Assembly (NCBI RefSeq): GCF_000009705.1
Contig: NC_003272.1
Location: forward strand, 2,670,001 to 2,702,000
From: Nostoc sp. PCC 7120 = FACHB-418
GTDB taxonomy: Bacteria > Cyanobacteriota > Cyanobacteriia > Cyanobacteriales > Nostocaceae
Direction of reading: 5' to 3'
Length of the DNA stretch: 32,000 bases
Program-made: the position numbers and the translations under genes
Shown: in pieces, positions 4,084 through 31,995 of the stretch
Position numbering within the stretch: the stretch's first letter is position 1
Layout of the letters: each line of letters begins with the position of its first letter
The notes under the pieces: model-generated
Told to the model about the DNA's origin: nothing
What the model saw: the letters and a program-made list of their open reading frames with translations, nothing else
Databases searched by the model: none

Positions 4084-4130
4084 TTTTTTGACATTTATAT
4101 GTCTCTGTCAAAAATTAATACTATTAATCG

Positions 4131-4160
4131 GTTAATAAAAAATTAAGAAAATACTAAATT
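4131..4160 (+). promoter_or_regulatory. Candidate Pho box (three 8-bp units at 11-bp period: GTTAATAA aaa ATTAAGAA aat ACTAAATT) in the phnC/porin divergent region
   Basis: The spacing and TTAA core resemble the cyanobacterial SphR/PhoB box PyTTAAPyPy(T/A) x3. It lies about 50-80 bp upstream of the phnC start. The surrounding DNA is very AT-rich, so a chance match is plausible. Confidence 0.25.
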
Positions 4161-4721
4161 ATAGGTTAATTATTTACTTATCACTCCAATGAAAGAGGTA
4201 ATTAGAAATATACCTCTTTATAATAAAAATTTTCTGATATCATGATTTCTATACATATTTTAATTAAGTTTAAATTAAAAAAAGACTAATTTTTGATAAA
4301 GGCGGAAGGGGTTGTTCATAAGTAAATACGCTTTATTACTCTGCAAGACTAAAGCAAGAGACTGTTAACCGGATACCAGCCATTAATTAGTGATTAAATT
4401 AGGGATAAACAGAGAATCATTAATAATGAATGCTCCATTTAATTAAGAATAGGTAAATACATGACAATTGTTTTTATTTCAAGACAATCTCTGGTGTGTA
4501 GTGAGTAATTGTGCTTTGATATTGTTAAAGTTGATTTTAAAAATATTTCTTCCAGAAGATTGACTTTTTTACCATCCAACATTGATTTTTTGTAATTAAA
4601 TATTAAATTCATAGCTTAATTAGTCAATCAATTTGCCTAACAGCTTTGAATGGCAATGAATTAAAAAATCAATGTGAAAAAATTATTTTCGCTATTTTCT
4701 ACCAGGTGTGAGGATACATTC

Positions 4722-16256: not shown

Positions 16257-19200
16257 TTATTGGGGGAAGCGAATGGAGAAAGTAGTACCACGATCGCGCT
16301 CTAAAAGAATCTTGCCTTTGATTTGCCTCACGAGGTTTTTGACAATTCTTAAGCCTAAAGAGTTGGCATTTTCCCAATCTAATGTTTCGGGAATGCCAAT
16401 ACCGTTATCTTTAACTAAGAGAGTTAATTGATTTCCTGGGACGGTTTCCAGGGAAATTATAATCTTATTGCCTTGTTTTTGTTCTGGAAATGCGTATTTC
16501 AGGCAATTAGACACCAACTCATTAATGATTAATCCGCAGGGAATAGCATTATCTAGATCCAATTTAATGCTGTTTGTTTCTATATTGATCATTATATTCT
16601 TTTGACTGACCCCATAGCAACGAAATAAGCTATCTGTCAGATTTTTGATGTAGTCGCTAAAGTTAATTTGATTAATATCTGCTGACTGATAAAGTTGCTC
16701 GTGAATCAAAGCCATCGACTGTACACGATTTTGGGATTCTGTAAATAGCAACAAAGTTGTTTCATCAAAAGAACGTCTAGATTGCATCCTGAGCAAACTA
16801 GAGATTATTTGCAGGTTGTTTTTAACCCGATGATGAATTTCTTTGAGTAAGGTTTCTTTTTCATCTAGCGATCGCTGTATTTGTTCTACAGCTTGTTTGC
16901 GATCGCTAATATCAGACAATCGTACTAAATTAATCCCCTGACCAGCTACAGTAATTTGTTTGGCAGCTAAATTCCCCCAGAAAAAATTACCTTTGCGAGT
17001 GGCATATTCAATTTCTCGACTCCACCAAGATTTTTGATTTAGTTCCTGGGTAATTTCACCCAATTGTTCGGGAGTAAATTGGTAACGTTGTAGTGTGTTT
17101 CCCTGAATATTGAGTAATTCTTCCTTATTGTCCACTTCAAACAAATCAACTGCACGGTCATTACAATCAAAAATTAATTGCGTGTCTATGTCTACTAAAA
17201 AAAGAGCATCGGCTGATTCATTAAAAATTGCTTCTCGCAAATCACGATGGTGAATAACTTCGGACTCGATTTTTTTGCGGGCGGTGATATCTGTCAAGCT
17301 ACCTATATAACCAAGGATATTTCCATTTAGGTCGGTTTCGGGTACTATCTGGATGTAGAACCAGGTGATGCTGCCGTCTGGACGTACATATCTTACCTCT
17401 CGCCGACAAGTTTCAAATGAACTACATTGTTTTCCGCAGGGGCCAGAACAATCTACCACCAGGTGATAGCGATCTTCTTCATGGATATTTTCTAACCATC
17501 CTTTCTGCAATGCCGCTTGTGTTGGTTTACCCGTCATTAAACTCCAACGTTCGTTGACGTAAATACAATTACTAGCAGTATCAAGCCGAAAAATAGCAAC
17601 GGGAGCCGCTTCTGTCAAGGTAGCATAGCGCTTTTCACTTTCCCGTAAGGCGGCTTCTACTTGTTTGCGCTCGGTAATATCATAGTTAATCCCAACCATG
17701 CGTAGTGGTTCACCCCACTCATTGCGTTGAACTAAAGCGGAGGCTTTGATAAAGCGGATACCGCCATTTTTTAGAACAATCCGAAATTCTGTATCAAATT
17801 CTCTGACTCCCTTGATGGCATCTTCAAAGGCCATCATTGCTTCATCTCGGTCATCTGGATGGAGCCTATCTATCCAATCTTGGGACTTTACTTTATTCTC
17901 AAACCCTTGCAAATCATATAGTTCATACATTCGGTTATCCCATTCCGCTTCCTGTATCATATCCCAGTCCCAAATACCGAGATTGGCTGAGCTGACTGCC
18001 AAGGTCAGTCGATCTGAAAGGTTACGTAGTTTTTCTTCTGTTTGTTTACGCTCAGTAATGTCTAAGATAGTGCTGATTAACTGGTATGGTTGCCCATGAG
18101 TGTTTAATATAACTTCGCCTCGTGATAGTAAATAACCCAAACTGCCGTCAGCGCGATAAAAACGATACTCTAGTTCATAAGCTTGTCTTTGTGTAATAGC
18201 TTGATGTAAGACAACATCGTGGTAGTTGCGATCATCCGGATGAATACAATCAAGCATTTCGTCGTAACTTGGTGTCCCGGACTCAGGATGGTGGCCAAAT
18301 ATGCGAAAAACCTCTTGTGACCAGATTAAGTTTTGCGTTGACAAATCCAGTTCCCAACTGCCCAAATGAGCAATTCTTTGTGCCGCAGCAAGAGTAGAGG
18401 TATTTTTGCGAAGTTGAGCTTCTATCTGTTTTTGCTGAGTAATATCTTTGGCAATTCCCACACCACCGATAGGCTTTCCCTCTTGATTAAACATGGGTTT
18501 AACCGAGAGAGCAACAGGGAAACGCGAACCATCTTTACGAATAAAAGTCCATTCTAATTCATCACTATCTTGCTGGGTTTTGACCAGGAAATCCTCAGGG
18601 GTAACTTCTCTACCCATCTCTTGTTTGAGTTCATTCATCCGTTGTTTGAGTTCCTCTGGCTCATGAAAAATGTTTGGTGTTAACTTACCAATCACCTCAT
18701 CGGCTGAGTAACCCAACATCTTTTGAGCAGCAAGGTTAAAAGTTTGAATTATGCCCTCGGAATTGGTAGAAATGACTGCATAATCGATGCTTGAAAGAAT
18801 CGCTTGTTGCAATTCGGAAACGGTTAATAACTGAGCTTCTGTTTCCTTGCGTTTAGTAATATCTGTTGCCGAGCCGCTCATGCGAATAGCATTGCCTGAT
18901 TCATCCCATAAAGCCTGACCCCGATCTAATATCCATATATAGGAGCCATCTTTGCGCTGTAGCCGATATTCTTCTTGGAAAAAGGGTGTTTTGTGGGCTA
19001 AATGGTCGGCGATCGCCTTCATAATGCGATCGTGATCATCAGGATGAATCCGGCTTAACCATGATTCTCGATTTCGCCCCAGTTCCTCACTGCTAAAGCC
19101 CAACATTTCTTCCCATCGAATTGAGAAGAAAACTTCATTAGTTGTGATGTTTCTGTCCCAGATGCCATCATTGCTGCCTCTTAGTGCCAAATGCCAGCGT

Positions 19201-21380
19201 TCTTCACTTTCCCTTAAAGCGGCAGTGCGTTCTGCAACTCTCGCTTCCAGTTCTTGATTAAGTTTTTGTAATGCCTGTTCTGCCCGAATTTTATCGCTAA
19301 TATCAACTGCTACACCACCAATAAATAATTCCCCCGTAGTTGCAGGTAAGGGGAATTTATAGACTAAAAAATCCCCCAACGTACCATCCAATCTGGGAGC
19401 TTTTTCAATGGTTTCGAGGATTTGTTGCGTTTGTGCTACCCGGTGAATATTATCCAAAAACGGCTGGGCTACTTCTGGGGTATAAAGCTCAAAAACTGTT
19501 TTGCCCGTCACATCCTCTACCTTGTCAAATGGCAGTTGAAAGGTACGGACATAGGTCTGGCTTAGATAAAGCATTCGGCCGTGGTCATCGGTAATCCAGG
19601 AAGCTGAGGGGCTGTTATTCATAAAAGCCTGAAACCGCGCTTCACTCTCTTGCAGGGCAGACTCCGCCTGTTTGCGTTCTGTGATATCAAAATCTATACC
19701 ACTCATCCGCAGAGGGTTACCGTTTTGGTCGTAGAAAACTTTACCTCTACTGAGCGCCCAACGTGGCGTACCATCAAGTTTAATAAAGCGAAATTCGATG
19801 TTGTAATCTTCTCTGTTGTAGACAGCACAATTAATGGATTGTAAAACCCTCTCTCGATCATCTGGGTGTATCAGCGACACAACCATTTCAAAATGACCAT
19901 TGAAGGTTCCCGGAACCATGCCAAATAGTTTTTCCAAATTCTCCGACCAGTGAATTCCACCTGTTTGAATATTCCATTCCCAGTTACCCATACACGCAGC
20001 ATCTAGAGCCATAGTTAATCGCTCTTCGTTCTGCTGTAGAGCAGCTTCTGTTTGCTTCCGTTCGCTAATATCTACACAGGAACCGATATAACCCAGAAAC
20101 ACTCCTTCCGTGGTGAAACGGGGAGTGCCTGTATCCAAAATCCAACAATATTGTCCATCAAAGCGTTTGAGCCGATATTCCATTTGAAAATTTTGGCGGG
20201 CATCAAAGGCATTGACGTAAGTGTCTAAGCAATCTTTTAAGTCATCGGGATGCACTCCTTGAACCCAACCATCACCTACTTCTTTTTCTAAGGTTTTGCC
20301 AGTAAAATCTAACCAGGTTTTATTGAAGTAGTAGCAAAGTTTATCGAGTCCCGACATCCAAATCAGTACGGGAGCCGTATCAGCCATCTGGCGAAACCGT
20401 TGTTCGCTCTCGCGGAGAGTTGCTTCTACTCGTTTTCGTTCTTGTAGTTCCGTCTGTATTTGCTCATAGGCACTGGCTTGCTGAATTGCGATCGCTATCT
20501 GCACCGCCAACTGCTCCAATAAGTCCAGTTCAAATGACTGCCAATGATGGGGTGCAGCACATTGGTGAGCAATTAATAATCCCCATGATTTATTTGTCAC
20601 CATAATGGGTACTATCAGAGTGGCTTTAACTTGAAACTGCTCTAGTAGTTCTAAATAACAGTTCGTTAAGCCTGCCTGATAAATATCATTAATCGCTCGT
20701 TTTTTTAGTTGATGGTTATGTCCTGCACTATCTTGAAAGCACTTATCTTCAATTTGCGCTCCTTTCGTCGCTATCCAACCGGGAAGTATAGACTCTGCGA
20801 CCACAATTCCACTCATATCGGGTTGAAATTGATAGATTAGTACCCGGTCTGCTTGCAAAAACTGGCGCACTTCCGCGACTGTGACACTCAAAATATCTTC
20901 TAGCTTCAGGGATTGCCTAATTATTAAAGCGATCGCCACCATTAGCTGTTGCTGTTGCCGACTTTTTTCTAACTGTCTTGTCAGCAGCATCCGTTCTACA
21001 GCATAATGAATTGTACTTTGTAAGGTTTCCGGTGTCAGAGAATTTTTCACCAAATAATCTTGAGCGCCATTTTTCATAGCACAGACAGCGACACTTTCGT
21101 CACCTTGTCCTGTGAGCATAATCACAGCAGATTGGTTATTATTTAGGTGTTCTCTTAGTTTTTGCAAAAACTCTAATCCATCGTGATCCGGCAGTAAATA
21201 ATCCAGCAAAATCACATCTGGTGTCTGTTGCTCACACCATGCCATTGCCTCTTGTGCTGTCTCAAATTGAAAAATCTCGTAGGTATGTAATCTATCCTGC
21301 TGCAAAAACAAACGATATATCTCCCGATCTTCGGCGCAATCATCAATCAGCAAAATGGTTAGAGGGGAGCGTTGATTCAT
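16257..21380 (-). CDS. Multi-sensor hybrid histidine kinase: REC - GAF - about 9-10 PAS/PAC - HisKA_2 - HATPase_c
   Basis: N-terminal receiver (ILLIDD...DVILLDYLLPDHDG...LVKN). GAF domain (...LLIAHQCAAPHHWQ). PAS/PAC units are repeatedly closed by D(I/V)(T/S)ERKQ-type linkers. H-box EIHHRVKNNLQIISSLLRMQ (HisKA_2/HWE-like). ATPase motifs NELVSNCLKYAF, DNGIGIP and GLGLRIV. Confidence 0.9.
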   Translation of the reverse strand: MNQRSPLTILLIDDCAEDREIYRLFLQQDRLHTYEIFQFETAQEAMAWCEQQTPDVILLDYLLPDHDGLEFLQKLREHLNNNQSAVIMLTGQGDESVAVCAMKNGAQDYLVKNSLTPETLQSTIHYAVERMLLTRQLEKSRQQQQLMVAIALIIRQSLKLEDILSVTVAEVRQFLQADRVLIYQFQPDMSGIVVAESILPGWIATKGAQIEDKCFQDSAGHNHQLKKRAINDIYQAGLTNCYLELLEQFQVKATLIVPIMVTNKSWGLLIAHQCAAPHHWQSFELDLLEQLAVQIAIAIQQASAYEQIQTELQERKRVEATLRESEQRFRQMADTAPVLIWMSGLDKLCYYFNKTWLDFTGKTLEKEVGDGWVQGVHPDDLKDCLDTYVNAFDARQNFQMEYRLKRFDGQYCWILDTGTPRFTTEGVFLGYIGSCVDISERKQTEAALQQNEERLTMALDAACMGNWEWNIQTGGIHWSENLEKLFGMVPGTFNGHFEMVVSLIHPDDRERVLQSINCAVYNREDYNIEFRFIKLDGTPRWALSRGKVFYDQNGNPLRMSGIDFDITERKQAESALQESEARFQAFMNNSPSASWITDDHGRMLYLSQTYVRTFQLPFDKVEDVTGKTVFELYTPEVAQPFLDNIHRVAQTQQILETIEKAPRLDGTLGDFLVYKFPLPATTGELFIGGVAVDISDKIRAEQALQKLNQELEARVAERTAALRESEERWHLALRGSNDGIWDRNITTNEVFFSIRWEEMLGFSSEELGRNRESWLSRIHPDDHDRIMKAIADHLAHKTPFFQEEYRLQRKDGSYIWILDRGQALWDESGNAIRMSGSATDITKRKETEAQLLTVSELQQAILSSIDYAVISTNSEGIIQTFNLAAQKMLGYSADEVIGKLTPNIFHEPEELKQRMNELKQEMGREVTPEDFLVKTQQDSDELEWTFIRKDGSRFPVALSVKPMFNQEGKPIGGVGIAKDITQQKQIEAQLRKNTSTLAAAQRIAHLGSWELDLSTQNLIWSQEVFRIFGHHPESGTPSYDEMLDCIHPDDRNYHDVVLHQAITQRQAYELEYRFYRADGSLGYLLSRGEVILNTHGQPYQLISTILDITERKQTEEKLRNLSDRLTLAVSSANLGIWDWDMIQEAEWDNRMYELYDLQGFENKVKSQDWIDRLHPDDRDEAMMAFEDAIKGVREFDTEFRIVLKNGGIRFIKASALVQRNEWGEPLRMVGINYDITERKQVEAALRESEKRYATLTEAAPVAIFRLDTASNCIYVNERWSLMTGKPTQAALQKGWLENIHEEDRYHLVVDCSGPCGKQCSSFETCRREVRYVRPDGSITWFYIQIVPETDLNGNILGYIGSLTDITARKKIESEVIHHRDLREAIFNESADALFLVDIDTQLIFDCNDRAVDLFEVDNKEELLNIQGNTLQRYQFTPEQLGEITQELNQKSWWSREIEYATRKGNFFWGNLAAKQITVAGQGINLVRLSDISDRKQAVEQIQRSLDEKETLLKEIHHRVKNNLQIISSLLRMQSRRSFDETTLLLFTESQNRVQSMALIHEQLYQSADINQINFSDYIKNLTDSLFRCYGVSQKNIMINIETNSIKLDLDNAIPCGLIINELVSNCLKYAFPEQKQGNKIIISLETVPGNQLTLLVKDNGIGIPETLDWENANSLGLRIVKNLVRQIKGKILLERDRGTTFSIRFPQ

Positions 21381-21632
21381 AAGCTATATACAAAAAGGCG
21401 ATCGGATTTCGTCAAAAAATTGAGATTCTCTATTTGCTGAATTAAAAATTCTTCTTAAATCAAGCTATATCTAAAAATAGATTAGTAAAAACCGAGCCAG
21501 TGAAATCCCTAATAATATTAATAGTTGTAAAAGTCTTTCTCTAGTTGTAAACTAATTTTTAACTCCTGGGTTAAAATGTAAATATTATCAACAAAACTTT
21601 AACATAATAGAATACTAAAGATATCTCCAGTA

Positions 21633-22223
21633 ATGACAAAAATTTTAGTAATTGAAGACCAGGAAGATATTCGTAGCATTATTGTAGAAATGCTAACTGC
21701 GGAAAATTTCTATGTTATGGACGCAGAAAACGGACAAGTGGGGATTACTATGCTACAAAAAGAAATTCCCGATTTGATTATCTGTGACATTGCTATGCCT
21801 AAAATAGATGGATATGAAGTTGTTACTTGGTCACGGGAAAATCCAGAAACTGAAGCTATTCCTTTTATATTTCTTACAGCTAAAGCCTCTCAAAATGATA
21901 TTCGTCAAGGTATAGAATTAGGTGCTGATGATTATCTAGTAAAGCCATTTACTAGAGCAGAATTACTGGGAGCAATAACAGCTAGATTAGAGAAACAAGA
22001 AATAATTAATAGACAAACACAAAAAAGACTCAACACATCTTATAGTTATCTGGCATCGACAATTAGAAATGATTTAAATAATCCTCTTAACTACGTTACA
22101 TCGATATCAGAGAAACTCATCAATGACTATGAATTTATGAATCGAGAAGAAATCTTAAAAAAGATCAAAGAAATTTATAATTTAAGCAAAAATTTTCAGG
22201 ATATAAATCTGAATAAGCGATAA
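21633..22223 (+). CDS. Response-regulator receiver fused to a degenerate, His-less DHp-like stub (no catalytic domain)
   Basis: The REC motifs are intact (VIEDQED, ICDIAMP, FLTAK, LVKPF). The C-terminal segment SYLASTIRNDLNNPLNYV aligns to the HisKA H-box xFLAxISHELRTPLNxI, with Asn in place of the phospho-His. The ORF ends about 60 aa later. Confidence 0.75.
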   Translation: MTKILVIEDQEDIRSIIVEMLTAENFYVMDAENGQVGITMLQKEIPDLIICDIAMPKIDGYEVVTWSRENPETEAIPFIFLTAKASQNDIRQGIELGADDYLVKPFTRAELLGAITARLEKQEIINRQTQKRLNTSYSYLASTIRNDLNNPLNYVTSISEKLINDYEFMNREEILKKIKEIYNLSKNFQDINLNKR

Positions 22224-22247
22224 ATCTAATCAACTAGAAAATTAAAT

Positions 22248-23381
22248 ATGAATCCTATCCAAATTTTGATAGTTGAAGATGAGCAACTAGTGGCTGATGA
22301 CCTGAGAGAAACTCTAGAATATTTGGGGTACGGTGTGCCTGCCTTAGTAGCATCTGGAGAAGAAGCTATTCTCATGGCAGGAATCTTGCGACCTGACCTA
22401 GTGCTGATGGACATCAGATTAGAGGGTAAAATCGATGGCATAGAAGCCTCTTTTGCCATCCAGTCTCGCTTTGGTTTACCTGTCGTTTACCTAACTGCTA
22501 ATGCCGACCGCGCAACACTAGAGCGAGCTAAGGCTTCCCATCCTTTTGGTTATATTTTAAAACCCTTCGATGAAAGAATATTAGCTACCACAATAGAGAT
22601 TGCCATTTCCCGACATCAAACAGAAGTTGAAGTAAAAGAAGCACTAATGGCTGCCAAAAATAGTCAGCAAATTGCTGAATCCAAAAACCAGATGAAATCA
22701 CAACATCTCTACATGGCAGCACATGAGTTTCGTAACCCTTTAACTACAATTAAGCTCAGTGCCGAAATGTTGAATACCTATGGCGAGAAGATGTCAGAGG
22801 AAAAAAAACAAAAACATATCGACCGCATTGAATCTGCCACGGATAGCTTGACGAATCTGCTAGAGAATATACTCACACTTGGTAGAGCCGAAGCTGAAAA
22901 TTTTGTATTGAACCCCACGCTGATAGAGGTAGTAAGTTTCTGTGAAGAAATAGTCGAGTCTTTACGGTTAACATTGAAAGAACAGTATGAAATTAATTTT
23001 GTCACAGATACTAAAAGTTGTATTGCCTGCTTAGATGAACAGCTACTGTGGCATTTACTAAATAACTTACTTTCTAACGCAGTCAAGTACTCACCCAGAG
23101 GTAGTACTATTTTGCTGCGGCTGACTTGCGACGAAAGTGATGTATATTTTCAAATTAAAGACCAAGGTGTAGGTATTCCCCCAGAATTTCAAGCTAAACT
23201 ATTTGAACCTTTTCAACGTGCTGCCAATGTTGCCACGATTCCTGGCACAGGATTAGGGCTAGCAATTGTTAAGCAATGTGTCGATTTGCATCAGGGTACG
23301 ATATCTATTGATACTACCTTAGGTCAAGGCACAAGTTTCGTAGTTAAACTACCACTGAAGGTAGATTCAATATCGGCTTAA
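22248..23381 (+). CDS. Hybrid sensor kinase: N-terminal REC + HisKA + HATPase_c
   Basis: REC (ILIVEDE...DLVLMDIRL...LTANA...ILKPF). H-box MAAHEFRNPLTTI, N-box LLNNLLSNAVKYS, G-boxes DQGVGIP and GTGLGLAIV. The 24-bp gap after the preceding gene suggests co-transcription. Confidence 0.9.
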   Translation: MNPIQILIVEDEQLVADDLRETLEYLGYGVPALVASGEEAILMAGILRPDLVLMDIRLEGKIDGIEASFAIQSRFGLPVVYLTANADRATLERAKASHPFGYILKPFDERILATTIEIAISRHQTEVEVKEALMAAKNSQQIAESKNQMKSQHLYMAAHEFRNPLTTIKLSAEMLNTYGEKMSEEKKQKHIDRIESATDSLTNLLENILTLGRAEAENFVLNPTLIEVVSFCEEIVESLRLTLKEQYEINFVTDTKSCIACLDEQLLWHLLNNLLSNAVKYSPRGSTILLRLTCDESDVYFQIKDQGVGIPPEFQAKLFEPFQRAANVATIPGTGLGLAIVKQCVDLHQGTISIDTTLGQGTSFVVKLPLKVDSISA

Positions 23382-23857
23382 TTTTGATAAAAATAGCGCT
23401 TTTCGAGTTGATGAAGTATATCGTCAAAATCGTCAAATTTGCAATCATTTATCCATAGCAATCTAATTTTAGCCCTGTAATTACTAGGGTAAATAGGTAA
23501 TAGCAAGAATAAATAAGGCTATTTTCAAGCTACTAAGGATTTTACAACAATTAAATCAGATTTCTAGACTTAATAAAAATTAACTAAAAGCTGACTTCTG
23601 GGAAAATTATTAATATTACCGATATCTATAAAAAAGTTAATCATATATTTGCAGGTTTTCTTTCTCTAGGTAAGTTAAGACATGATCTTTTATAGGTATA
23701 GCTATATATTTAAAGAATAATTCCGGCTAATTACTGACTAAGAGCTTTTATTTTTTACAAAAATTGATATTATAAATAATTAACTTGCCGCTAATTTAAA
23801 AACTAAATATAATTGATAGAAATTCATGATGTAATTGAATTAATTTCTGATATAAGC

Positions 23858-26203
23858 ATGGCTAAACGATCTCTCCAAGCCTCGGATGAAGGTATTAGGA
23901 AAGCCAAAAGAGCTTTTAATCATAAAGGTTGGACACAAGAATATCTAGCCAGTCAAGTTGGACTAGATAGTCGCCAACCAATTTGGAAGTTTTTTTCTGG
24001 CAAACCTGTTGCCCGGCATATATTCCATGAAATTTGCTTTAGCCTAGCCCTAAATCCAGAAGAGATTGTTCAAACACCAGAATTTGAACCAGATGAACAC
24101 TTAGAAACCCAACAGATACTAGAAGGTCAAAACTCTACAGTCATTGAATCTTTAGTGACTAAAATACGTGCTGCCCACTCAGAAAAAATTCAAAATCAAT
24201 GTGGTACTATCCGGTTGTTAGATGTTGCGCGTACCGTAGAATTGGATGAATTATTTATTGAGGTCAATGTATTAGAAGAAATTACTAATCAAAGATGGCT
24301 GGATATTTCAGAGTTACAAAAGTCTGATAATAAAGCTTTAAACGAATTTGTATTAGAGGAAGTTACTACTAAAAAAATTACAGGACTACAAGCTATTGAG
24401 AAATTTTCTAAGCTTTTTGTCTTTGGCAATCCAGGTGCGGGAAAAACTACTTTTTTGCAATCAATCGCCACACTTTGTAACCAAGGTAAATTTCAGCCTC
24501 AACGTGTTCCTATTTTTATTAGCCTGAAAGATTTTGCCGAAAATATTGACTACGATGATAAAAACCCTTTATTAAGCTATTTAATTGAGGAATTAAGTAT
24601 TTGTAAAATAGCTCAACAGGAAGTAGAAGAATTACTTCATAAAGGTAAAGTTTTAATTTTACTAGATGGATTGGATGAAGTTGCAGATAAATATACGGAT
24701 AAAATCAATAAAACAATTAGTACTTTTTTGGATATTTTTTATAAAAATGTAGTAATTATCAGTTGTCGAATTGCATTTAGGCATCAAAAATTTAAAGGTT
24801 TTGCTGAAGTACAAATTTCTAAATTTACAAAATCACAAATATCAGATTTTGCTAATAAATGGTTTGCAGCTTTTGCTAAAAATAATACCCGGTTAAAGAA
24901 AACATTAGCCTCTAAATTTATTGATAAAATAACCCTTCCGGAAAATCGACTAATCCAAAATCTAGCATCCACACCTATTTTATTAAACCTCACCTGTTTA
25001 GTATTCCAATATCTCGGCGATTTCCCTACTAAGCGGTCTGAAATTTATCAGCAAGGTTTAGAGCTATTACTAGTACGTTGGGACGAAGCCAAAGGAATCA
25101 AAAGAGATGAAGTTTATGCTAATTTAACCTTAGCCCAGAAAATTAAGTTGCTTAGTTATATCGCTGCCACTTTTTTTGAAAAGGGCAATTACTTTTTTGA
25201 AGAAAACATCATTTGTCAATTAATAGCTGACTTTTTATATCTGTTACCAAATGCACCAACTGATTTAGAAGCTTTACAAGTAGATAGTAAAGCTGTGCTT
25301 AAAGCAATGGAGTTACAGCATGGATTATTAGTTGAACAAGCTAGGGGCATTTATTCTTTTTCTCATTTAACATTTCATGAATATTTTACCGCCAGATTTC
25401 TTGCTAACAGCGACCATAAAAAATTAGAACAAATTGCCGATTGTTTAATTGATAAGCGATGGTGTGAAGTTATATTGCTCACATCGGAAATTATCAAATC
25501 CTTTGAGGACTTATTCCAGCTAATCAAGCAACAAATTGATAAGTTAGCAGTTGCAGATGAAACAGTAAAACTTTTTCTCACTTGGGTAATGAACAAGTCC
25601 TCAACAGTTATTTCCAATTATCATTCGTCTGCTGTACGTGCTTTTTACTTTACCCTAGCCTTACCTCCAGATTATGCTTTATCACGTAACCAAACTCTAG
25701 CTACAGTTTTAGATAGTCATTTAACAGGAAAACTAGCTGATGATTTAGCTTTGGATTTAGCTTTAAGTCATATTTTTGCAGTTAGCATTTCTTTGACTCC
25801 AGAGCTTTTCTGCAAGCGTATATCTGCTCTCAAATTAGCTCTTGATATTGATTATTTACTACAATCACATTCATCCTTAGATGAATCGCTACAAAACCTC
25901 AAACAAGAACTGCCTAGTTCACAACAAGATAAAGAGATATTAAAAGCATGGTGGCAATCTCATGGGCAATCTTGGACAACACAGTTAAAAGAAGTAATCA
26001 AAATACATCGCCAAATGGATTGCGCTTGGCAATTTACTGAGAAACAATTACATTTAATTCAAAAATACTGGGAGGCAAACAACTTATTAGTATATTGTTT
26101 TAATACCGCTAGCAATGTTACTCCCAATTTAAAAGAAATTATTAAAGAATCTTTGATTTTACCTCCAGAACAAACAGAAATAACCACTCTAAATAATGTT
26201 TGA
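23858..26203 (+). CDS. STAND NTPase: N-terminal HTH - NACHT - non-repeat alpha-helical C-terminal domain
   Basis: N-terminus MAKRSLQASDEGIRKAKRAFNHKGWTQEYLASQVGLDSRQPIWKFFSGKPV (cyanobacterial HTH module). Walker A GNPGAGKTTFLQ. Walker B VLILLDGLDEV. Also ISCR and LASTPILLNLTCLVF, which are NACHT hallmarks. No WD40, TPR or LRR repeats are visible. The ORF is open from TTG 23813; ATG 23858 is more likely. Confidence 0.85.
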   Translation: MAKRSLQASDEGIRKAKRAFNHKGWTQEYLASQVGLDSRQPIWKFFSGKPVARHIFHEICFSLALNPEEIVQTPEFEPDEHLETQQILEGQNSTVIESLVTKIRAAHSEKIQNQCGTIRLLDVARTVELDELFIEVNVLEEITNQRWLDISELQKSDNKALNEFVLEEVTTKKITGLQAIEKFSKLFVFGNPGAGKTTFLQSIATLCNQGKFQPQRVPIFISLKDFAENIDYDDKNPLLSYLIEELSICKIAQQEVEELLHKGKVLILLDGLDEVADKYTDKINKTISTFLDIFYKNVVIISCRIAFRHQKFKGFAEVQISKFTKSQISDFANKWFAAFAKNNTRLKKTLASKFIDKITLPENRLIQNLASTPILLNLTCLVFQYLGDFPTKRSEIYQQGLELLLVRWDEAKGIKRDEVYANLTLAQKIKLLSYIAATFFEKGNYFFEENIICQLIADFLYLLPNAPTDLEALQVDSKAVLKAMELQHGLLVEQARGIYSFSHLTFHEYFTARFLANSDHKKLEQIADCLIDKRWCEVILLTSEIIKSFEDLFQLIKQQIDKLAVADETVKLFLTWVMNKSSTVISNYHSSAVRAFYFTLALPPDYALSRNQTLATVLDSHLTGKLADDLALDLALSHIFAVSISLTPELFCKRISALKLALDIDYLLQSHSSLDESLQNLKQELPSSQQDKEILKAWWQSHGQSWTTQLKEVIKIHRQMDCAWQFTEKQLHLIQKYWEANNLLVYCFNTASNVTPNLKEIIKESLILPPEQTEITTLNNV

Positions 26204-26375: not shown

Positions 26376-26420
26376 ATAAAAAAGGCTCAAGTAACGTAAA
26401 TGTGACACTGTTACTTGAGC
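26376..26420 (-). terminator. Rho-independent terminator of the minus-strand gvpL/F-arsA-like-cdc48-like operon (11-bp perfect stem GCTCAAGTAAC/GTTACTTGAGC, 14-nt loop, U6 tail on the minus strand)
   Basis: Read directly from the sequence. It lies about 90 nt downstream of the AAA+ gene stop (26512). The A6 run at 26378-26383 gives the U-tract on the minus-strand RNA. Confidence 0.75.
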
Positions 26421-26511: not shown

Positions 26512-28353
26512 TTAATCTGGGCGCTGTTCTGTGAGAACTTTATAAGCATAGTTGAAATCATCGGTAGTAATCTTGATTTCAGAAGGGTCTGTCAATCCTT
26601 GGGAGCGAAAACGACGAATTGCTTCTACCGCCGCTTGATTGCACAGTAAAGTTAAATCTGCACCATTCCAATCTTGGGTCATCTCTGCCCAATAGTTGAA
26701 ATCCACACCGTCTAGGGGTCGTCCTTGGCTATGGACTAGGAGAATTGCCAGACGACTAGCTAAATCTGGTAAATCTACCTTCATCTGTAAATCTAAGCGT
26801 CCGGCGCGTAACAAAGCTGGGTCAAGGGCATCGGGTCGATTGGTCGCCCCAATTACTAAGATGGTGCTGCCTACTTCTATGCCATCCAACTCTGTGAGCA
26901 ATTGTCCAACTACGCGATCGCTCACTCCCGAATCACCACTAAAACTGCCCCGTGCTGGAGCTAAAGTATCGATTTCATCAATAAATACAACACAAGGCTC
27001 TGCTTGACGCGCCTTGGCAAATAATTCCCGTACTGCTTGTTCACTTGCACCCACCCAACGACTGAGTAACTCTGGGCCGTTGACACCAATAAAATTAGCT
27101 CTGGCTTGGGAAGCAACGGCCTTAGCTAATAAAGTTTTTCCTGTCCCTGGCGGCCCCCACAGTAAAATGCCTTTTGGTGCTAGTGCTTTGGTTTGCAAAT
27201 ACAGTTCTGGATATAACAGCGCTCCTTCCACTGACTCCCGTAGGGTTTGCTTAATCGTATCCAAACCACCAATATCGTCCCAGGCGATGTGAGGAACTTC
27301 GACTTCCACGCTTCGTAGTACAGCTGGTTTGATTTCTTTGAGTGCTTGCAAAAAGTCAGCTTGGCTAACTGTCATATTCTCTGGAACTGCACTTTCAACC
27401 GAAGGCATTTGACGGCGCAGAGCAGTATAAGCAGCCTTTTGACAGAGGGCTTTTAAGTCAGCCCCCACAAATCCCACAGATCGTTCGGCGATCGCATCCA
27501 GGTCAACTGTTTCTTCCAAAGGCATGGCACGGGTGAGAATTTGCAGAATATCTCTGCGTCCTTTCACATCTGGCACACGAAACTGGACTTCCCGGTCAAA
27601 TCGCCCCGGACGGCGCAAAGCTGGGTCAAGATGGTCAGGACGGTTAGTCGCAGCCAGTACAATCACACCTTGACTGTGGGAAAAACCATCCATCAGGCTT
27701 AACAGTTGGGCTACAAGACGTTTTTCTACTTCCCCTTCTACTGCACTCCGGTCAGGAGCTAAACTATCGATTTCATCAATGAAAATAATACAAGGAGCAT
27801 TCTTAGCAGCCTTTTCAAAAATACCCCGCAGTCTTTGCTCGGCTTCACCATAATATTTGCTGATAACTTCCGGCCCCACCAGCGCAATATAGTTAACACC
27901 AAGTTCCTCAGCCAAACCACGAGCAGTTAGAGTTTTACCAGTGCCAGGAGGCCCAACTAAAAGTACACCCCGCGTAGGTTCCAACCCCAATTTTGCCAGG
28001 AGGTCAGGGCGTTTTAAGGGAATAGCGATTAATTCCTTAAGTTCTTTAACAACCTCACCCAGCCCGCCAACATCTTTCAAAGAATTACCAGAAGGCGCAT
28101 CCGGTGGAACAACAACATCAGAACTGTCTCCATTCCCTGAATCAGAATTAGGAGAGGGTTGGGTACGAATACGGCTTGTACCAATATCATTAGCCATATT
28201 ATTAGGACGCGGGATATTTCCAGTTCTAGGAATACTGCTCATAGAACGAGAGTTAATCTGGAAATCAGTCTTAATTTCTCCTTTCTCTGCTTTTTCTTCT
28301 AAAGTTTTGACTAATTCAATTAACTGTTCAAATCCCTTGAATAAATCACTCAT
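26512..28353 (-). CDS. Double-ring AAA+ ATPase, Cdc48/p97/VCP-like, with a non-canonical low-complexity N-terminus
   Basis: Two complete AAA modules. D1 has GPPGTGKT, IIFIDEIDS and ATNRPDHLDPALRRPGRFD. D2 has GPPGTGKT, VVFIDEIDT and ATNRPDALDPALLRAGRLD. The first ~100 aa form a short helix followed by an S/P/N/G-rich tract, not a double-psi-barrel N-domain. Confidence 0.9.
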   Translation of the reverse strand: MSDLFKGFEQLIELVKTLEEKAEKGEIKTDFQINSRSMSSIPRTGNIPRPNNMANDIGTSRIRTQPSPNSDSGNGDSSDVVVPPDAPSGNSLKDVGGLGEVVKELKELIAIPLKRPDLLAKLGLEPTRGVLLVGPPGTGKTLTARGLAEELGVNYIALVGPEVISKYYGEAEQRLRGIFEKAAKNAPCIIFIDEIDSLAPDRSAVEGEVEKRLVAQLLSLMDGFSHSQGVIVLAATNRPDHLDPALRRPGRFDREVQFRVPDVKGRRDILQILTRAMPLEETVDLDAIAERSVGFVGADLKALCQKAAYTALRRQMPSVESAVPENMTVSQADFLQALKEIKPAVLRSVEVEVPHIAWDDIGGLDTIKQTLRESVEGALLYPELYLQTKALAPKGILLWGPPGTGKTLLAKAVASQARANFIGVNGPELLSRWVGASEQAVRELFAKARQAEPCVVFIDEIDTLAPARGSFSGDSGVSDRVVGQLLTELDGIEVGSTILVIGATNRPDALDPALLRAGRLDLQMKVDLPDLASRLAILLVHSQGRPLDGVDFNYWAEMTQDWNGADLTLLCNQAAVEAIRRFRSQGLTDPSEIKITTDDFNYAYKVLTEQRPD

Positions 28354-28395
28354 AGCATCACTCCAAAAATCTCAAAAACCTTACTTTTTCCGCCT

Positions 28396-30303
28396 TTATC
28401 TTTTATTAGCAGTTAATTCCTCGACTTCAAATAAAAGACTAGCCGCGCCTTTAACTCGGTCTATAGCCTCCACCGAACGGGGTAATCCAGGTAGGCGAAT
28501 CATAGTTTGTTCTGGAAATAAACTATGATCAATTTCCACTTCTGGACTATAGCGATTCTGCACTATATAACGCTGACTAACCCCCATGTTTTTTAAAGAC
28601 TCTGTTAAGCGTATATGTTCAGATATGATGGCTACTTCTGACTGAATCACCCCAACAAATTGAGTATGTTGAAAATTCTTTAACTTCTTTTGTGCTTGTA
28701 CAACTTGCTGACGTAAATTTCGTAAACGTCCAATGAATTCCACTCTACCCAAAACATCTTGATATTTTAGCCACAGTTTAAATATCCAAGATAACCAATC
28801 ACCTAAAGCCGATGGCATTTCTAAAAATCGCAGAAGATGACCTGTTGGCGCAGTATCTAAAATGATTAAATCTTGCTGGTTACTATCTAACAAATCCATC
28901 ACAGTAATTAGAGATAGCATCTCATCAATACCCGGTAAAGCTTGAGACATAATCTGTCGCCATGCCTCCGGCACATAGGCAACATTCACTGTTGTATTTG
29001 CTTGTGAACCTTCGCCACTAATCATATCTGCCAATTCCCAAAGATAATCTCTACGGAATTGTTCTAAAACTCTGTTGGCATCAATTTCTTGCCCACTTAA
29101 ATTCGAGGTTAAAGATATAGGCTCATGTCCTAAATCCTTGCCAAAAGCATCTCCTAAAGAATGTGCTGGGTCTATAGAAATTACCTGAATTTTTTTATCT
29201 GGATGTTGTTGAGCAGAAGCCCAAGCTATGCCGGCGGCTACCGTTGTTTTTCCTACACCTCCTTTACCGCCAATAATAATTAATTTGCATCCTTCGTTAA
29301 TAAAATCATGAAAGCTAGGTAAAACTTGAGTAGGCCATTGAATAATTGGTGGCGGCACAAGTTCAACACTGGCAATTTTTTGAATTTGGGATGCTAGAGA
29401 ATCTAATGCCACCCCACCCAAGGGTTCTACTCTTTGTTGTGGTACGATAAAAACAGGCTGATTAGTATTAAGATTTAAGTACTTAGTAAGTAAATTTTGC
29501 TGTTCAGCGTAACGGTCTAGTTCTAACTCCGAATTTAGTAAAATGTGATTAATAAATAATCCAGCGTAGGGAACATCTAATGTTTCTAGGCTATTTAAAA
29601 ATCGCTCGGTTTCAGAAAAACACATGGGTTCAGAAATACCCACTACCAAACAACCAGTAAATTTTTCATCTTGCAGTAAGCGTCTGCCTTCTGCTAATTG
29701 ATGTTTCATCTCTACTAAAAAGTTATCGACTTCATCAGCCGTATAACTACCTTTAAAACTTTGGGTAATTACCCGATGTTTTTCTTGAAACAGTTCTAGG
29801 GAATTTAAAATAACATCTAAAAAATCTTTGAGGCGTAACAAATTTAGGGTATGACCAGAAGGAGCCATGTCTATAACTACACGATCTGCCTCATTGTCAG
29901 CTAGTAGGCGCTGAATTTCTAGCAAACCCATTAATTCATTCAAGCCAGGCCAGTTTAAATCCCATACTGGTGCTAAATCACCTCCATCAGCTAAACTGCC
30001 TCTCTCCACAAGTATTTCTAAAAAGTAACTATATTTTGCTTTAAATTCCAACAACAATTTTTGAGCATCCAACGCCTGAACACTCAAGTTAGGTAAGTCT
30101 GTTACTGCTAATGCAATATCTTTAACTTCTGATTGCAATACATCCCCTAAAGAATGTGCAGGATCTGTAGAAATTAACAGAATTTTTTCTTGAGGAAACT
30201 TTCTGGCCCAATAACGTGCAAAGCTGCAAGATATGGTAGTTTTACCAACCCCACCTTTGCCGCTAAACATAACTAGATGCAATGAATCATAGTAGTCCAT
30301 CAT
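28396..30303 (-). CDS. Tandem-domain ArsA/Get3(TRC40)-family ATPase
   Basis: Two homologous halves. Each has a deviant Walker A GKGGVGKTT, a DPAHSLGD motif and a switch II (DMAPSGHTL in one, DTAPTGHLL in the other). No arsB, arsC, arsD or arsR lies nearby. Confidence 0.85.
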   Translation of the reverse strand: MMDYYDSLHLVMFSGKGGVGKTTISCSFARYWARKFPQEKILLISTDPAHSLGDVLQSEVKDIALAVTDLPNLSVQALDAQKLLLEFKAKYSYFLEILVERGSLADGGDLAPVWDLNWPGLNELMGLLEIQRLLADNEADRVVIDMAPSGHTLNLLRLKDFLDVILNSLELFQEKHRVITQSFKGSYTADEVDNFLVEMKHQLAEGRRLLQDEKFTGCLVVGISEPMCFSETERFLNSLETLDVPYAGLFINHILLNSELELDRYAEQQNLLTKYLNLNTNQPVFIVPQQRVEPLGGVALDSLASQIQKIASVELVPPPIIQWPTQVLPSFHDFINEGCKLIIIGGKGGVGKTTVAAGIAWASAQQHPDKKIQVISIDPAHSLGDAFGKDLGHEPISLTSNLSGQEIDANRVLEQFRRDYLWELADMISGEGSQANTTVNVAYVPEAWRQIMSQALPGIDEMLSLITVMDLLDSNQQDLIILDTAPTGHLLRFLEMPSALGDWLSWIFKLWLKYQDVLGRVEFIGRLRNLRQQVVQAQKKLKNFQHTQFVGVIQSEVAIISEHIRLTESLKNMGVSQRYIVQNRYSPEVEIDHSLFPEQTMIRLPGLPRSVEAIDRVKGAASLLFEVEELTANKR

Positions 30304-30340
30304 GAAATTAAAAATTCCTTGATAAATTTATTAGTAGAAA

Positions 30341-31024
30341 TTAAACAAAGTGATAGGGTGGTAGAGGTTCTCCCAAGATTAAATTCCAATGAGGGCATTT
30401 TTCTTGTAGCGTTAACACTTGTTTGAAGAGTAAAGTTTTATCATGGCGATCAACTAAAAGATGAAGCCGTACTTCTTCTACATAATCTTGAATGATCGCA
30501 GATGAGCGATAAACATCCATTATTAAATTGATCAGATGATTTTTCTCCCTATTTTGATCACCAATAAAGTTTTTTTGATGTTCATAATGTAGTTTTTTCG
30601 CCAAAAAGTAATCTCTGCCATTTCCCCCTGATACCTTAGCGAGTTCTTCAAATTTACGAGGAATGAGCTTTAAAGTATATTCAGTTTTTCCTTGAATATG
30701 ATCGAGTTTCTTTTGATATTCCTGAGCATGAGACTCTATATGATTTAGTAATGTCTCTTCGGAATTGAAATAAGTGCCAAAACGTAGAGGTAAAACTGTT
30801 GTCTGCTGAGATAGCTCACAAATGACGCGATCGTGAGCTAAAACCATCTTGATAACTTCCTCGTCATTATTTTGGCTAGATTCTAAGGATATTCCCGGTT
30901 CCACGACGGCTGAGAGCTTATGGCCATGAATCAGGAGTAATTGACCCAGATTGCCAGATGGTAGACGTAAAGGAATATCAGGAGTATTTAGAAAAGCATA
31001 AGTGTAAAAATTTGGCGATCGCAT
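30341..31024 (-). CDS. GvpL/GvpF-family gas vesicle protein (GvpW-like)
   Basis: N-terminus YTYAFLNT...L..LPSG (compare the LYLYGI-type start of GvpF/L). Core motif HDRVICEL...TVLPLRFGT. C-terminus GEPLPPYHFV. Length about 227 aa. It sits next to gvpG and a GvpV-like ORF, matching the cyanobacterial ...G-V-W order. Confidence 0.75.
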   Translation of the reverse strand: MRSPNFYTYAFLNTPDIPLRLPSGNLGQLLLIHGHKLSAVVEPGISLESSQNNDEEVIKMVLAHDRVICELSQQTTVLPLRFGTYFNSEETLLNHIESHAQEYQKKLDHIQGKTEYTLKLIPRKFEELAKVSGGNGRDYFLAKKLHYEHQKNFIGDQNREKNHLINLIMDVYRSSAIIQDYVEEVRLHLLVDRHDKTLLFKQVLTLQEKCPHWNLILGEPLPPYHFV

Positions 31025-31124
31025 TATTCCACCCAGGTAAAAAAACTTAAATATTCTATTTTATTGCTGCCAGAACAAATATCTTGTCATAGAAATATAA
31101 AAACATCTGAATTTGATTAAACTA

Positions 31125-31152
31125 TTTACATCTTTAAAATCTTAGTTATAAT
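31125..31152 (+). promoter_or_regulatory. Sigma70-type promoter candidate (TTTACA - 16 bp - TATAAT)
   Basis: The -35 element is at 31125-31130 and a perfect -10 at 31147-31152. It lies in the 126-bp divergent region. It implies translation of the downstream ORF from ATG 31178 rather than 31151. Confidence 0.4.
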
Positions 31153-31177
31153 GCTATCAATTATTCAGGTATTTCCA

Positions 31178-31492
31178 ATGACAAAAGTACGTAATCGGGG
31201 CATAATCAGACCTAAAATCACTACAATGCCTAGAAATAAATCTGAGGCTTCCAGTCAATTAGAACTTTACAAATTAGTAACAGAACAACAGAGAATTAAA
31301 CAAGAGTTGGCTTTTATCGAACAGAGGACAGTACTACTTAAGCAACGATTATCTACGCTTAAAACCCAGATAGAAGGTACAGAAAGGAGTATTAATCATT
31401 TGCGTCATTCTGAGCTAAAATATTCTCGGATAGCACTACCAAAAATATTCAGTGAAACTAATAATTACCAAGCATTTGATATCGAATATTAA
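31178..31492 (+). CDS. Small basic/coiled-coil protein, GvpV-like
   Basis: MTKVRNRGIIRPKITTMPRNKSEASSQLELYKLVTEQQRIKQELAFIEQRTVLLKQRLSTLKTQIEG... has a basic N-terminus followed by a heptad-rich helix. It is followed at once by a strong hairpin terminator. Its position between gvpG and the GvpW-like gene fits gvpV. This identification comes from memory of the family, not from a search. Confidence 0.55.
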   Translation: MTKVRNRGIIRPKITTMPRNKSEASSQLELYKLVTEQQRIKQELAFIEQRTVLLKQRLSTLKTQIEGTERSINHLRHSELKYSRIALPKIFSETNNYQAFDIEY

Positions 31493-31527
31493 ACTATTAA
31501 CCCGCGAAAGCGGGTTTTTAATAGTTT
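31491..31527. terminator. Extended palindrome / bidirectional terminator (core AACCCGC gaaa GCGGGTT + T5; outer arms AAACTATTAA/TTAATAGTTT)
   Basis: Read directly from the sequence. It sits between the convergent GvpV-like ORF (+) and gvpG (-). Confidence 0.7.
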
Positions 31528-31617: not shown

Positions 31618-31995
31618 TCAAGGTGATAAAACTAAATCCTCTTTATCTTCGTATTCCTCGCTAAATCTAGATTGGTCTTGATAAACTGGATTTTCTTCAG
31701 ATGCTAATATAAAAATAGGTTGCACATCTAAATCATCATCTTCCTCAGACTCTGCATTGAGGCGCTCTTCTGCTTCTAAAGCTTGAATTTTCAAGAGAAT
31801 CTCTTCTTCTTGTATATCAAATTCTTCTTCAGAAATTTCACCCATATCAAATTTTAATTGCAGACTTAATAATTGCTTATGTAGATTTTCTTGAGCATCA
31901 AATTCAGTATTGGTACGTTCTTGAATTTGTTCTCCAATCCACATAAGTCCATTAATTGGCCCCATAACAGGCAATAACAAGATTTTACCTAGCAT
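31618..31995 (-). CDS. gvpG: Gas vesicle protein GvpG
   Basis: MLGKILLLPVMGPINGLMWIGEQIQERTNTEFDAQENLHKQLLSLQLKFDMGEISEEEF... is the conserved GvpG N-terminal hydrophobic segment plus helix. An acidic C-terminal tail follows. The rest of the gvp operon presumably lies beyond 32000. Confidence 0.85.
   Translation of the reverse strand: MLGKILLLPVMGPINGLMWIGEQIQERTNTEFDAQENLHKQLLSLQLKFDMGEISEEEFDIQEEEILLKIQALEAEERLNAESEEDDDLDVQPIFILASEENPVYQDQSRFSEEYEDKEDLVLSP

Follow-up and report, generated by a model that had tools for sequence, protein, structure and literature searches.

Get3/ArsA-type and Cdc48-type ATPase genes follow gvpW at the distal edge of a cyanobacterial gas-vesicle gene cluster: a candidate accessory proteostasis unit

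In gas-vesicle biology, it is still an open question how the extremely hydrophobic and aggregation-prone shell protein GvpA stays soluble, enters the growing shell and is removed once vesicles have collapsed. Chaperoning is ascribed in current models to GvpF and GvpG only, a requirement of GvpA for both having been argued by Iburg et al. (2024). Two conserved ATPase genes, routinely omitted from the 'complete' gas-vesicle (gvp) gene cluster, lie at the end of that of Nostoc sp. PCC 7120. We analysed a 32,000-nucleotide stretch of this genome (NC_003272.1, positions 2,670,001 to 2,702,000 of the forward strand; hereafter referred to as the window), in which gvpW is followed by a gene for a tandem ATPase of the Get3/ArsA family (the ArsA-like protein) and by a gene for a double-ring AAA+ ATPase of the Cdc48 type. 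Both ATPases belong to families that, in eukaryotes and archaea, handle hydrophobic segments or extract proteins from assemblies. On balance, we favour the interpretation that the triad is a conserved distal unit of the cyanobacterial gas-vesicle gene island and works as a proteostasis module, in an accessory role, on the highly hydrophobic shell proteins. This interpretation builds on direct observations, namely the identities of the genes, their operon-like arrangement, the intactness of the catalytic motifs and a gvp linkage conserved within and across phyla. The three genes are as follows:

26512..28353, minus strand: AAA+ gene, 613 aa (open reading frame (ORF) map; Pfam and NCBIfam)
28396..30303, minus strand: tandem Get3/ArsA-family ATPase gene, 635 aa (ORF map; Pfam and NCBIfam)
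30341..31024, minus strand: gvpW, first gene of the unit, 227 aa (PF06386)

The initial annotation, made from the sequence of the window, had described three minus-strand genes with gaps of 37 and 42 bp, and the ORF map, from which the coordinates above are taken, agrees with it exactly. The identities that it had proposed, namely a GvpL/F(W)-like protein, a tandem ArsA/Get3 ATPase, a double AAA+ protein, a GvpV-like protein and gvpG, were borne out by Pfam and NCBIfam and by the naming in the literature. As seen in the flanks of identical contigs, the window breaks off within a complete gvpA-gvpA-gvpC-gvpN-gvpJ-gvpK-gvpF-gvpG-(gvpV)-gvpW cluster of the PCC 7120 lineage, whose distal edge it covers; Anabaena sp. 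FACHB-709 encodes the same ArsA-like and AAA proteins, at 100% identity. The gvpW product matched PF06386 (GvpL_GvpF) with 118 bits (cut-off 23.6, E 9e-34) and the product of the Microcystis gene in the gvpW position with 232 bits, GvpF orthologues matching far more weakly. It belongs to the GvpW subgroup of the GvpL/GvpF family, and its orthologues adjoin ATPase genes in Microcystis and in Nostoc punctiforme-type loci. In PCC 7120, Cai et al. (2020; PMC7204071) named alr2245 gvpW and alr2246 gvpV, their naming going no further, and called the cluster intact with gvpA through gvpW.

The ArsA-like protein contains two PF02374 domains (337 bits, E 1e-100) and scored 339 bits against TIGR00345 (cut-off 135), which places it in the ArsA/Get3/TRC40 family. 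Each half carries GKGGVGKTT and DPAHSLGD, and switch II reads DMAPSGH in the N-terminal half and DTAPTGH in the C-terminal half; the P-loops and switch motifs of both halves are intact and did not vary among 42 cyanobacterial homologues. Of the PDB sequences, ArsA1 (PDB 5zme) matched best (153 bits), with E. coli ArsA at 97 bits, and each half is 26-29% identical to Get3/TRC40 as against 19-21% to ArsA. An AlphaFold (AF2) model, with a predicted local distance difference test (pLDDT) value of 80.5 and a predicted template-modelling score (pTM) of 0.77, has the ArsA/Get3 pseudo-dimer fold, with template-modelling (TM) scores of 0.65/0.71 to closed ArsA and 0.59 to Chlamydomonas ArsA1. The score against NF050088, the model of the Nostoc Get3-fold protein NosAFP, was 76 bits (cut-off 325). 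Weak matches to CbiA, ParA and MinD raised the idea of a ParA/MinD-like positioning ATPase, which we do not favour because the protein forms a full ArsA/Get3-fold pseudo-dimer with both helical subdomains. Two loops of low model confidence, residues 103-113 and 433-442, lie at equivalent positions in the two helical subdomains and may correspond to flexible parts of the Get3 client-binding domain.

Databases give the protein names such as 'arsenite-transporting ATPase' and 'ArsA family ATPase', labelling it an arsenite pump ATPase, and the Nodularia gene nsp15480, listed among arsenic genes in the genome paper, is the gene right after gvpW. Such names would suit a genuine arsenite efflux ATPase that happens to lie beside the cluster. 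However, the protein scored only 170 bits against TIGR04291, the model of ArsA proper (cut-off 650). Across 119 cyanobacterial homologues, C26 and C218 are the only conserved cysteines, whereas ArsA uses three metalloid ligands; the window protein has neither a three-cysteine metalloid site nor a CxxC motif, and an absence of the ArsA cysteines was also noted in PMC2963123. No ars gene (arsB, acr3, arsR or arsC) was found in the window or within 10 kb, in line with what the initial annotation had stated. We rejected a role in arsenic resistance on the grounds of this score, the cysteine content and the genomic context. A true ArsA, or an IetA-like anti-phage ATPase (discussed with the AAA+ protein below), placed here by chance has in our estimation next to no probability.

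An association of ArsA homologues with gas vesicles was described by Castillo and Saier (2010; PMC2963123), who reported two-domain homologues in the gvp clusters of four phyla, including those of Nostoc sp. PCC 7120 and Anabaena variabilis. Their Clusters 4 and 6 comprise proteins of about 637 aa without ars genes and without the ArsA cysteines, and they proposed that these proteins energise a step of gas-vesicle biogenesis. To delimit the family, we searched 1.84 billion cluster representatives exhaustively and obtained 459 clusters at E < 1e-30. The best 150 of these 459 (50%-identity representatives) were mostly full-length tandem proteins scoring 225-838 bits; a few were closer, at 48-61% identity, followed by many at about 30-37% (225-385 bits). 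We aligned 63 of these, scanned one genome per GTDB species and listed 80 loci, about 20 of which hold members of the ArsA-like family, the remainder (generic motif matches) serving as negative controls. These loci were annotated with hidden Markov models built iteratively from the PCC 7120 Gvp proteins, and their ArsA/Get3 ORFs were ranked by their score to the window protein.

Among the matches listed, all ORFs with scores of 187 bits or more are located within gvp clusters, except for one in Lyngbya sp. HA4199-MV5 (locus L010; 885 bits), where the ArsA-like gene is divergently paired with an AAA gene and no gvp gene occurs in 10 kb. The gvp-embedded ORFs come from cyanobacteria, Chloroflexota (Anaerolineales, Dehalococcoidales), Acidobacteriota (Blastocatellia, Thermoanaerobaculia, Vicinamibacterales, Terriglobia), Myxococcota (Labilithrix), Gemmatimonadota (Gemmatimonadaceae) and Rokubacteria. 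A single-domain version from Chlorobiaceae (130-136 bits) also lies within a gvp cluster. In contrast, none of the roughly 70 ArsA/Get3 ORFs listed at no more than 125 bits has a gvp gene within 10 kb; among them are true ArsAs, archaeal Get3s and the single-domain housekeeping Get3 homologues of about 390 aa found in Nostoc, Dolichospermum and Cuspidothrix. The window gene, which directly follows gvpW, belongs to the gvp-linked set, and in the non-cyanobacterial clusters the gene usually stands straight after gvpF/L-gvpG. These results, taken together, firmly establish that the linkage of the ArsA-like subfamily to gvp clusters is conserved across phyla. The protein is a tandem (pseudo-dimeric) Get3/ArsA ATPase of a distinct gas-vesicle-linked subfamily, whose breadth is greatly extended here beyond that described in 2010 and, as it appears, had not been reported.

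The ArsA-like gvp clusters of Myxococcota, Gemmatimonadota, Acidobacteriota and Rokubacteria (L008, L011, L012, L013, L019, L024 and L039) contain no GvpN within 10 kb. Their typical order is gvpF/L - gvpG - ArsA-like - gvpF/L - J/K - gvpF/L - K, and the ArsA-like protein may be the only ATPase that these clusters encode.

The AAA+ protein contains two PF00004 domains and two AAA_lid_3 domains. Both D1 and D2 have Walker A (GPPGTGKT) and Walker B (DEID) motifs, and their pore loops, KYYG in D1 and RWVG in D2, correspond in the alignment to KYYG and KWVG of VAT; by these sequence motifs it is a classical AAA unfoldase. Its best PDB match was D1D2 of Thermoplasma VAT (611 bits, residues 90-580), and p97 D1-D2 also aligned over residues 90-580. 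It nevertheless falls short of the Cdc48/VAT family model TIGR01243, matching model positions 177-676 only, with 662 bits against a cut-off of 802.65. The Pfam scan gave no CDC48_N or CDC48_2 match, and no family at all for residues 1-90, in which a clade-specific helix (MSDLFKGFEQLIELVKTLEEKAEKGEIKT) and an SSIPRxGNIP motif occupy residues 1-45 and a low-complexity linker runs to about residue 90. Two further identities were considered. GvpN was ruled out by the two PF00004 domains and by the presence of a true gvpN elsewhere in the same cluster (locus L001, 5195-6427); the initial annotation had likewise kept the protein apart from GvpN. Matches to the anti-phage ATPase IetA/IteA (238 bits with the PADLOC IetA models, 234 bits with NCBIfam IteA) would fit the anti-phage possibility mentioned above, but they reflect generic per-module AAA similarity, lie far under the IteA cut-off of 510 and come without a gene for the partner protease IetS, so this identity was rejected.

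A scan of metagenomes separated the relatives of the AAA+ protein into two tiers. Those of the upper tier are at least 64% identical over their full length and all share the N-terminal helix and SSIPRQGNIP, whereas those of the lower tier are at most 56% identical, match residues 83/94-605 only and are N-domain Cdc48/VAT types of 715-870 aa, none of them near gvp genes. Throughout the clade, a conserved helix (MSDLFKGFEQLLELAKTLEEKAEKGELKT), the SSIPRQGNIP motif and a variable linker rich in proline and serine stand in place of the Cdc48 N-domain, and the clade without this domain was monophyletic in a neighbour-joining tree. Judged from its sequence, the AAA+ protein defines a cyanobacterial clade that lost the Cdc48 N-domain.

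Metagenomic loci of this clade whose upstream sequence extends for 2.5 kb or more number 30; the ArsA-like gene is adjacent in 24 of them, and gvp genes are present as well in 22 of the 24. Microcystis (two), Planktothrix, Raphidiopsis and many metagenomic contigs share the order G, (V), W, ArsA-like, AAA; since the same order recurs with unrelated genes downstream, the arrangement is more than chance. The adjacency of the three genes, for which the initial annotation had proposed a survey of gene neighbourhoods, is in fact kept across cyanobacterial orders. Other arrangements also bring the AAA gene to gvp genes. In the basal cyanobacterium Candidatus Cyanaurora vandensis, it is inside gvpA-N-J-AAA-F-G, between gvpJ and gvpF; loci of the N. 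punctiforme/Desmonostoc type read ArsA-like ... gvpG(-), gvpN-J-K-F-AAA-gvpW-gvpA; and in Leptolyngbya ohadii the ArsA-like and AAA genes form a divergent pair at a distance of 1.2 kb from gvpA-N-J-K-F-G. Outside the cyanobacteria, full-length Cdc48 genes (CDC48_N, CDC48_2, D1 and D2) are present in the gvp clusters of two Chlorobiaceae metagenome-assembled genomes and one Anaerolineales metagenome-assembled genome, and the three proteins cluster together in the neighbour-joining tree. In the two Chlorobiaceae loci (L014, 9998-13106; L015, 4313-7422), the start of the Cdc48 gene overlaps the end of a single-domain ArsA-like gene (312-321 aa), and this overlap suggests translational coupling of the two ATPases.

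The genes Npun_F2147-F2164 of N. punctiforme, which include gvpA (Npun_F2159), are co-expressed in hormogonia (Klicki et al. 2022). From the gene order in loci L104 and L171, the AAA gene would fall within this co-expressed block. The gvpA quantitative PCR primer matches L104 with 2 mismatches, which supports the equation of L104 with Npun_F2153-F2159 only weakly because gvpA is highly conserved. In L171 (N. punctiforme FACHB-252), a TacA/GNAT-acetyltransferase toxin-antitoxin pair lies between the ArsA-like gene and gvpG (5472-6271). Two other loci, of Kovacikia (L169, 11854-12114) and Leptolyngbya ohadii (L170, 11855-12112), have an ORF of about 85 aa, starting at or just past the AAA stop codon, which belongs to no Pfam family and is absent from the window.

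The anatomy of the unit in the window was then defined by the remaining features:

26378..26420, minus strand: intrinsic terminator of the gvpW/ArsA-like/AAA unit; 11-bp stem, 14-nt loop, then C and U6 (sequence and fold)
28354..28395, minus strand: spacer between the ArsA-like and AAA genes, 42 bp; GGAG ribosome-binding site 7 nt ahead of the AAA start
30304..30340, minus strand: spacer between gvpW and the ArsA-like gene, 37 bp (sequence)
31025..31177, no strand assigned: divergent intergenic region between gvpW and gvpV; sigma-70-like TTTACA-16-TATAAT at 31125-31152 (+) for gvpV
31178..31492, plus strand: gvpV, small coiled-coil protein, 104 aa (gene calls in identical genomes)
31503..31523, no strand assigned: hairpin between the convergent gvpV and gvpG; ACCCGC-GAAA-GCGGGT followed by T5; probable bidirectional terminator ending the gvpA...gvpG operon
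31618..31995, minus strand: gvpG, last gene of the main gvp operon, the operon running past the window end (PF05120, 81 bits)

The terminator at the end of the unit has the arms GCUCAAGUAAC (26420-26410) and GUUACUUGAGC (26395-26385), separated by the loop. Its folding energy was -19.1 kcal/mol (z = -5.8), which none of 200 shuffled sequences equalled, so the 11-bp stem described in the initial annotation withstood this comparison. A sequence scan found no hairpin or terminator-like site in the 42-bp spacer between the two ATPase genes. The hairpin after gvpG folds on both strands (-14.4 and -13.4 kcal/mol), as would be expected of the bidirectional terminator that had been suggested. The claim of a 126-bp divergent region with a near-consensus promoter held in part. 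The distance from gvpW to the plus-strand ORF 31151-31492 is indeed 126 bp, and the TTTACA-16-TATAAT site agrees with the consensus at 11 of 12 positions, but the region as a whole gave 9 promoter-like matches as compared with 15 +/- 4 in shuffled sequences, and because of this shortfall we take the site as no more than a consensus match. Its -10 box also overlaps ATG 31151, the first ATG of the 113-aa ORF. As the -10 box covers this ATG and gene callers in identical genomes begin gvpV 9 codons downstream (104 aa), translation probably starts at ATG 31178, the upstream ATG not being used. We identified no promoter for gvpW in the divergent region 31025..31177. The gvpV product matches no Pfam family, and in every locus of the 7120, Microcystis and Planktothrix types gvpV separates gvpG from gvpW and is encoded on the opposite strand. 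This conserved opposite-strand gene, together with the hairpin after gvpG, makes it plausible that gvpW and the two ATPase genes form a predicted transcription unit separate from the main gvp operon.

Three observations concern the surroundings. Locus L002, from an assembly encoding an identical ArsA-like protein, differs from L001 by about 320 bp near positions 3600-4200, with one gvpA copy (called 99 aa) instead of two 71-aa copies. In the window, a 796-aa STAND NTPase with NACHT and NCH2 domains (23813-26203, plus strand), which gave a weak EruA-like anti-phage match, converges on the AAA gene and is not kept beside the gvp island in other genera. Farther away, a signalling block (16257-23381) includes a 1707-aa multi-PAS/GAF hybrid histidine kinase on the minus strand, a response regulator (21633-22223) and a response-regulator/histidine-kinase fusion (22248-23381).

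How might the two ATPases serve gas vesicles? The clients, the direction of action (delivery or extraction) and a contact with GvpW are inferred here by analogy with known relatives. A role in handling, inserting or recycling shell proteins, as suggested in the initial annotation, would agree with all observations made here. The clients would be GvpA and GvpJ, and perhaps also GvpG through its hydrophobic N-terminal helix. The nucleotide cycle of the Get3-like pseudo-dimer would capture and shield hydrophobic segments and then hand them to assembly factors of the GvpF/L/W fold at the growing vesicle. The double-ring AAA+ protein, with aromatic pore loops in both rings, would thread and extract shell protein that is mis-assembled, aggregated or collapsed, so that it could be re-used or degraded, with the clade-specific N-terminal helix acting as a docking site in place of the Cdc48 N-domain. 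Under a broader proposal, which we consider possible if doubtful, cyanobacteria, green sulfur bacteria and Chloroflexota would possess in their gvp clusters the genes for an insertion/extraction cycle dedicated to a protein-shelled organelle; in this cycle, the Get3-like protein would deliver GvpA-type subunits and the Cdc48/VAT-type protein would pull them from collapsed or faulty shells.

The VAT-like character of the AAA+ protein, with its aromatic pore loops in both rings, would also suit a regulated dismantling for buoyancy control, in which the unfoldase acts on intact vesicles to lower buoyancy, stripping off GvpC or taking out GvpA, while the Get3-like protein holds the freed subunits, and the position of the unit apart from the structural operon would permit independent regulation. 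However, the loci of hormogonium-type Nostoc have the AAA gene amid structural genes, which argues for co-expression with assembly. This possibility, to which we give very little credence, differs from the proteostasis module only in trigger and target.

Several facts weigh against the proteostasis module as we propose it, and two of its competitors draw on them. One concerns the AAA gene. Solitary copies, 65-79% identical, occur in Kovacikia minuta, Arthrospira platensis and five metagenomic contigs, the AAA gene thus standing alone in some Leptolyngbya-type genomes; the ArsA-like/AAA pairs of L010, L114 and L118 lack gvp genes within 10 kb; and many of the syntenic metagenomic loci counted above are redundant Microcystis contigs. 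These cases, and the many named AAA relatives from Leptolyngbya, Oculatella and Elainellaceae, would be expected if the genes served general cyanobacterial proteostasis or membrane-protein targeting and stood beside gvp genes in some lineages without a special gas-vesicle role. On the other hand, the genes are embedded in the gvp clusters of three other phyla and of basal cyanobacteria, gvp context splits the listed ArsA/Get3 homologues near-perfectly, and cyanobacteria possess, in addition, single-domain Get3 homologues without gvp linkage (L069, L071, L072 and L079). A comparison of neighbourhoods revealed no alternative conserved neighbour common to the solitary AAA genes, and even Leptolyngbya ohadii has its pair beside a gvp cluster. 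A purely general role is, in our judgement, decidedly improbable. The linkage to gvp genes envisaged in the initial annotation is thus nearly complete for the ArsA-like subfamily and less strict for the AAA clade, whose linkage is firmly established as strong but not exclusive. In Arthrospira platensis NIES-39 (L005), the orthologue (79% identical) lies amid IS630 and IS605 elements and a group II intron reverse transcriptase, an isolation that fits the scattered gvp gene set of that genome.

The other facts concern the two proteins themselves. The cyanobacterial ArsA-like protein has no Get3 CxxC, a motif that is present in each half of the non-cyanobacterial gvp-linked relatives and was lost from both in the cyanobacterial clade; because the two halves are fused, zinc-mediated dimerisation would be unnecessary. 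No Cdc48-type gene occurs within 10 kb in 8 of the 11 non-cyanobacterial ArsA-like gvp clusters, and the two ATPases are therefore not an obligate pair. A literature search found functional or expression data for neither ATPase gene in any organism. E. coli carrying gvpABC, NJKFG and VW and neither ATPase gene showed flotation and irregular vesicles (Cai et al. 2020, PMC7204071), and the ATPases are therefore accessory and not essential for basic assembly.

The irregularity of these vesicles can also be read in favour of an assembly energiser, in which the ArsA-like ATPase, with or without the AAA+ protein, powers vesicle growth, for example the insertion of GvpA at the central seam, and complements or replaces GvpN. 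Such a role, already proposed in PMC2963123, is consistent with two features of gvp clusters: the ArsA-like gene occupies a core position, flanked by gvpF/L-gvpG and gvpF/L-J/K, and the clusters of four phyla that carry it show no GvpN within 10 kb. Yet the clusters of cyanobacteria, Chlorobiaceae and Chloroflexota have GvpN as well, and E. coli does form vesicles without the ArsA-like gene. Known proteins of the Get3/ArsA family, moreover, work by capture and hand-over and not as assembly motors. We consider the energiser unlikely and retain the proteostasis module as our working interpretation.

The initial annotation was aware of no described function for the combination. The ArsA homologue has been known in gvp clusters since 2010, whereas the Cdc48-type gene and the conserved gvpW-first unit appear to be unreported. 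Our literature search found no experiment following up the 2010 proposal, no paper linking Cdc48/VCP-type ATPases or Get3 to bacterial gas vesicles, and nothing relevant on all2243-all2245 or on an AAA ATPase in hormogonia. The practical bearing lies in engineered gas vesicles as ultrasound reporters. If the insertion/extraction cycle exists, adding both genes could regularise the vesicles and cut the proteotoxic cost of heterologous expression of gas vesicles as acoustic reporters; the cycle would then be a bacterial counterpart of the eukaryotic GET and Cdc48/Msp1 logic, operating at a gas-water protein interface instead of a lipid membrane.

Comparison with known systems places the unit as follows. 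The ArsA-like gene is of the same family, and has the same genomic association, as Clusters 4 and 6 of Castillo and Saier (2010), whose survey covered few SEED genomes and is silent on both the Cdc48-type AAA+ neighbour and the operon structure headed by gvpW. With Get3/TRC40 and Chlamydomonas ArsA1, the ArsA-like protein shares the deviant Walker A motif, switch I and switch II and, as predicted, the pseudo-dimer fold. Unlike Get3, it lacks the CxxC zinc motif, and its presumed target is a protein shell, whereas that of Get3 is a lipid bilayer; Get1/2 or Get4/5 partners are not known in bacteria. The AAA+ protein has in common with VAT, Cdc48 and p97 the D1-D2 rings with lids, the Walker A and B motifs in both rings and the aromatic pore loops. 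It differs from them in having a short conserved helix, a motif and a low-complexity linker where they have a double-psi-barrel N-domain, in lacking the C-terminal HbYX motif and in the gvp linkage of its gene; cyanobacteria are not known to have a 20S proteasome. Finally, GvpN is likewise an ATPase of the gvp cluster with an accessory and not a structural role, but it is a single-module protein of the MoxR/AAA_5 type, whereas the AAA+ protein of the window is a two-ring ATPase of the classical clade, unrelated to GvpN beyond the AAA+ fold.

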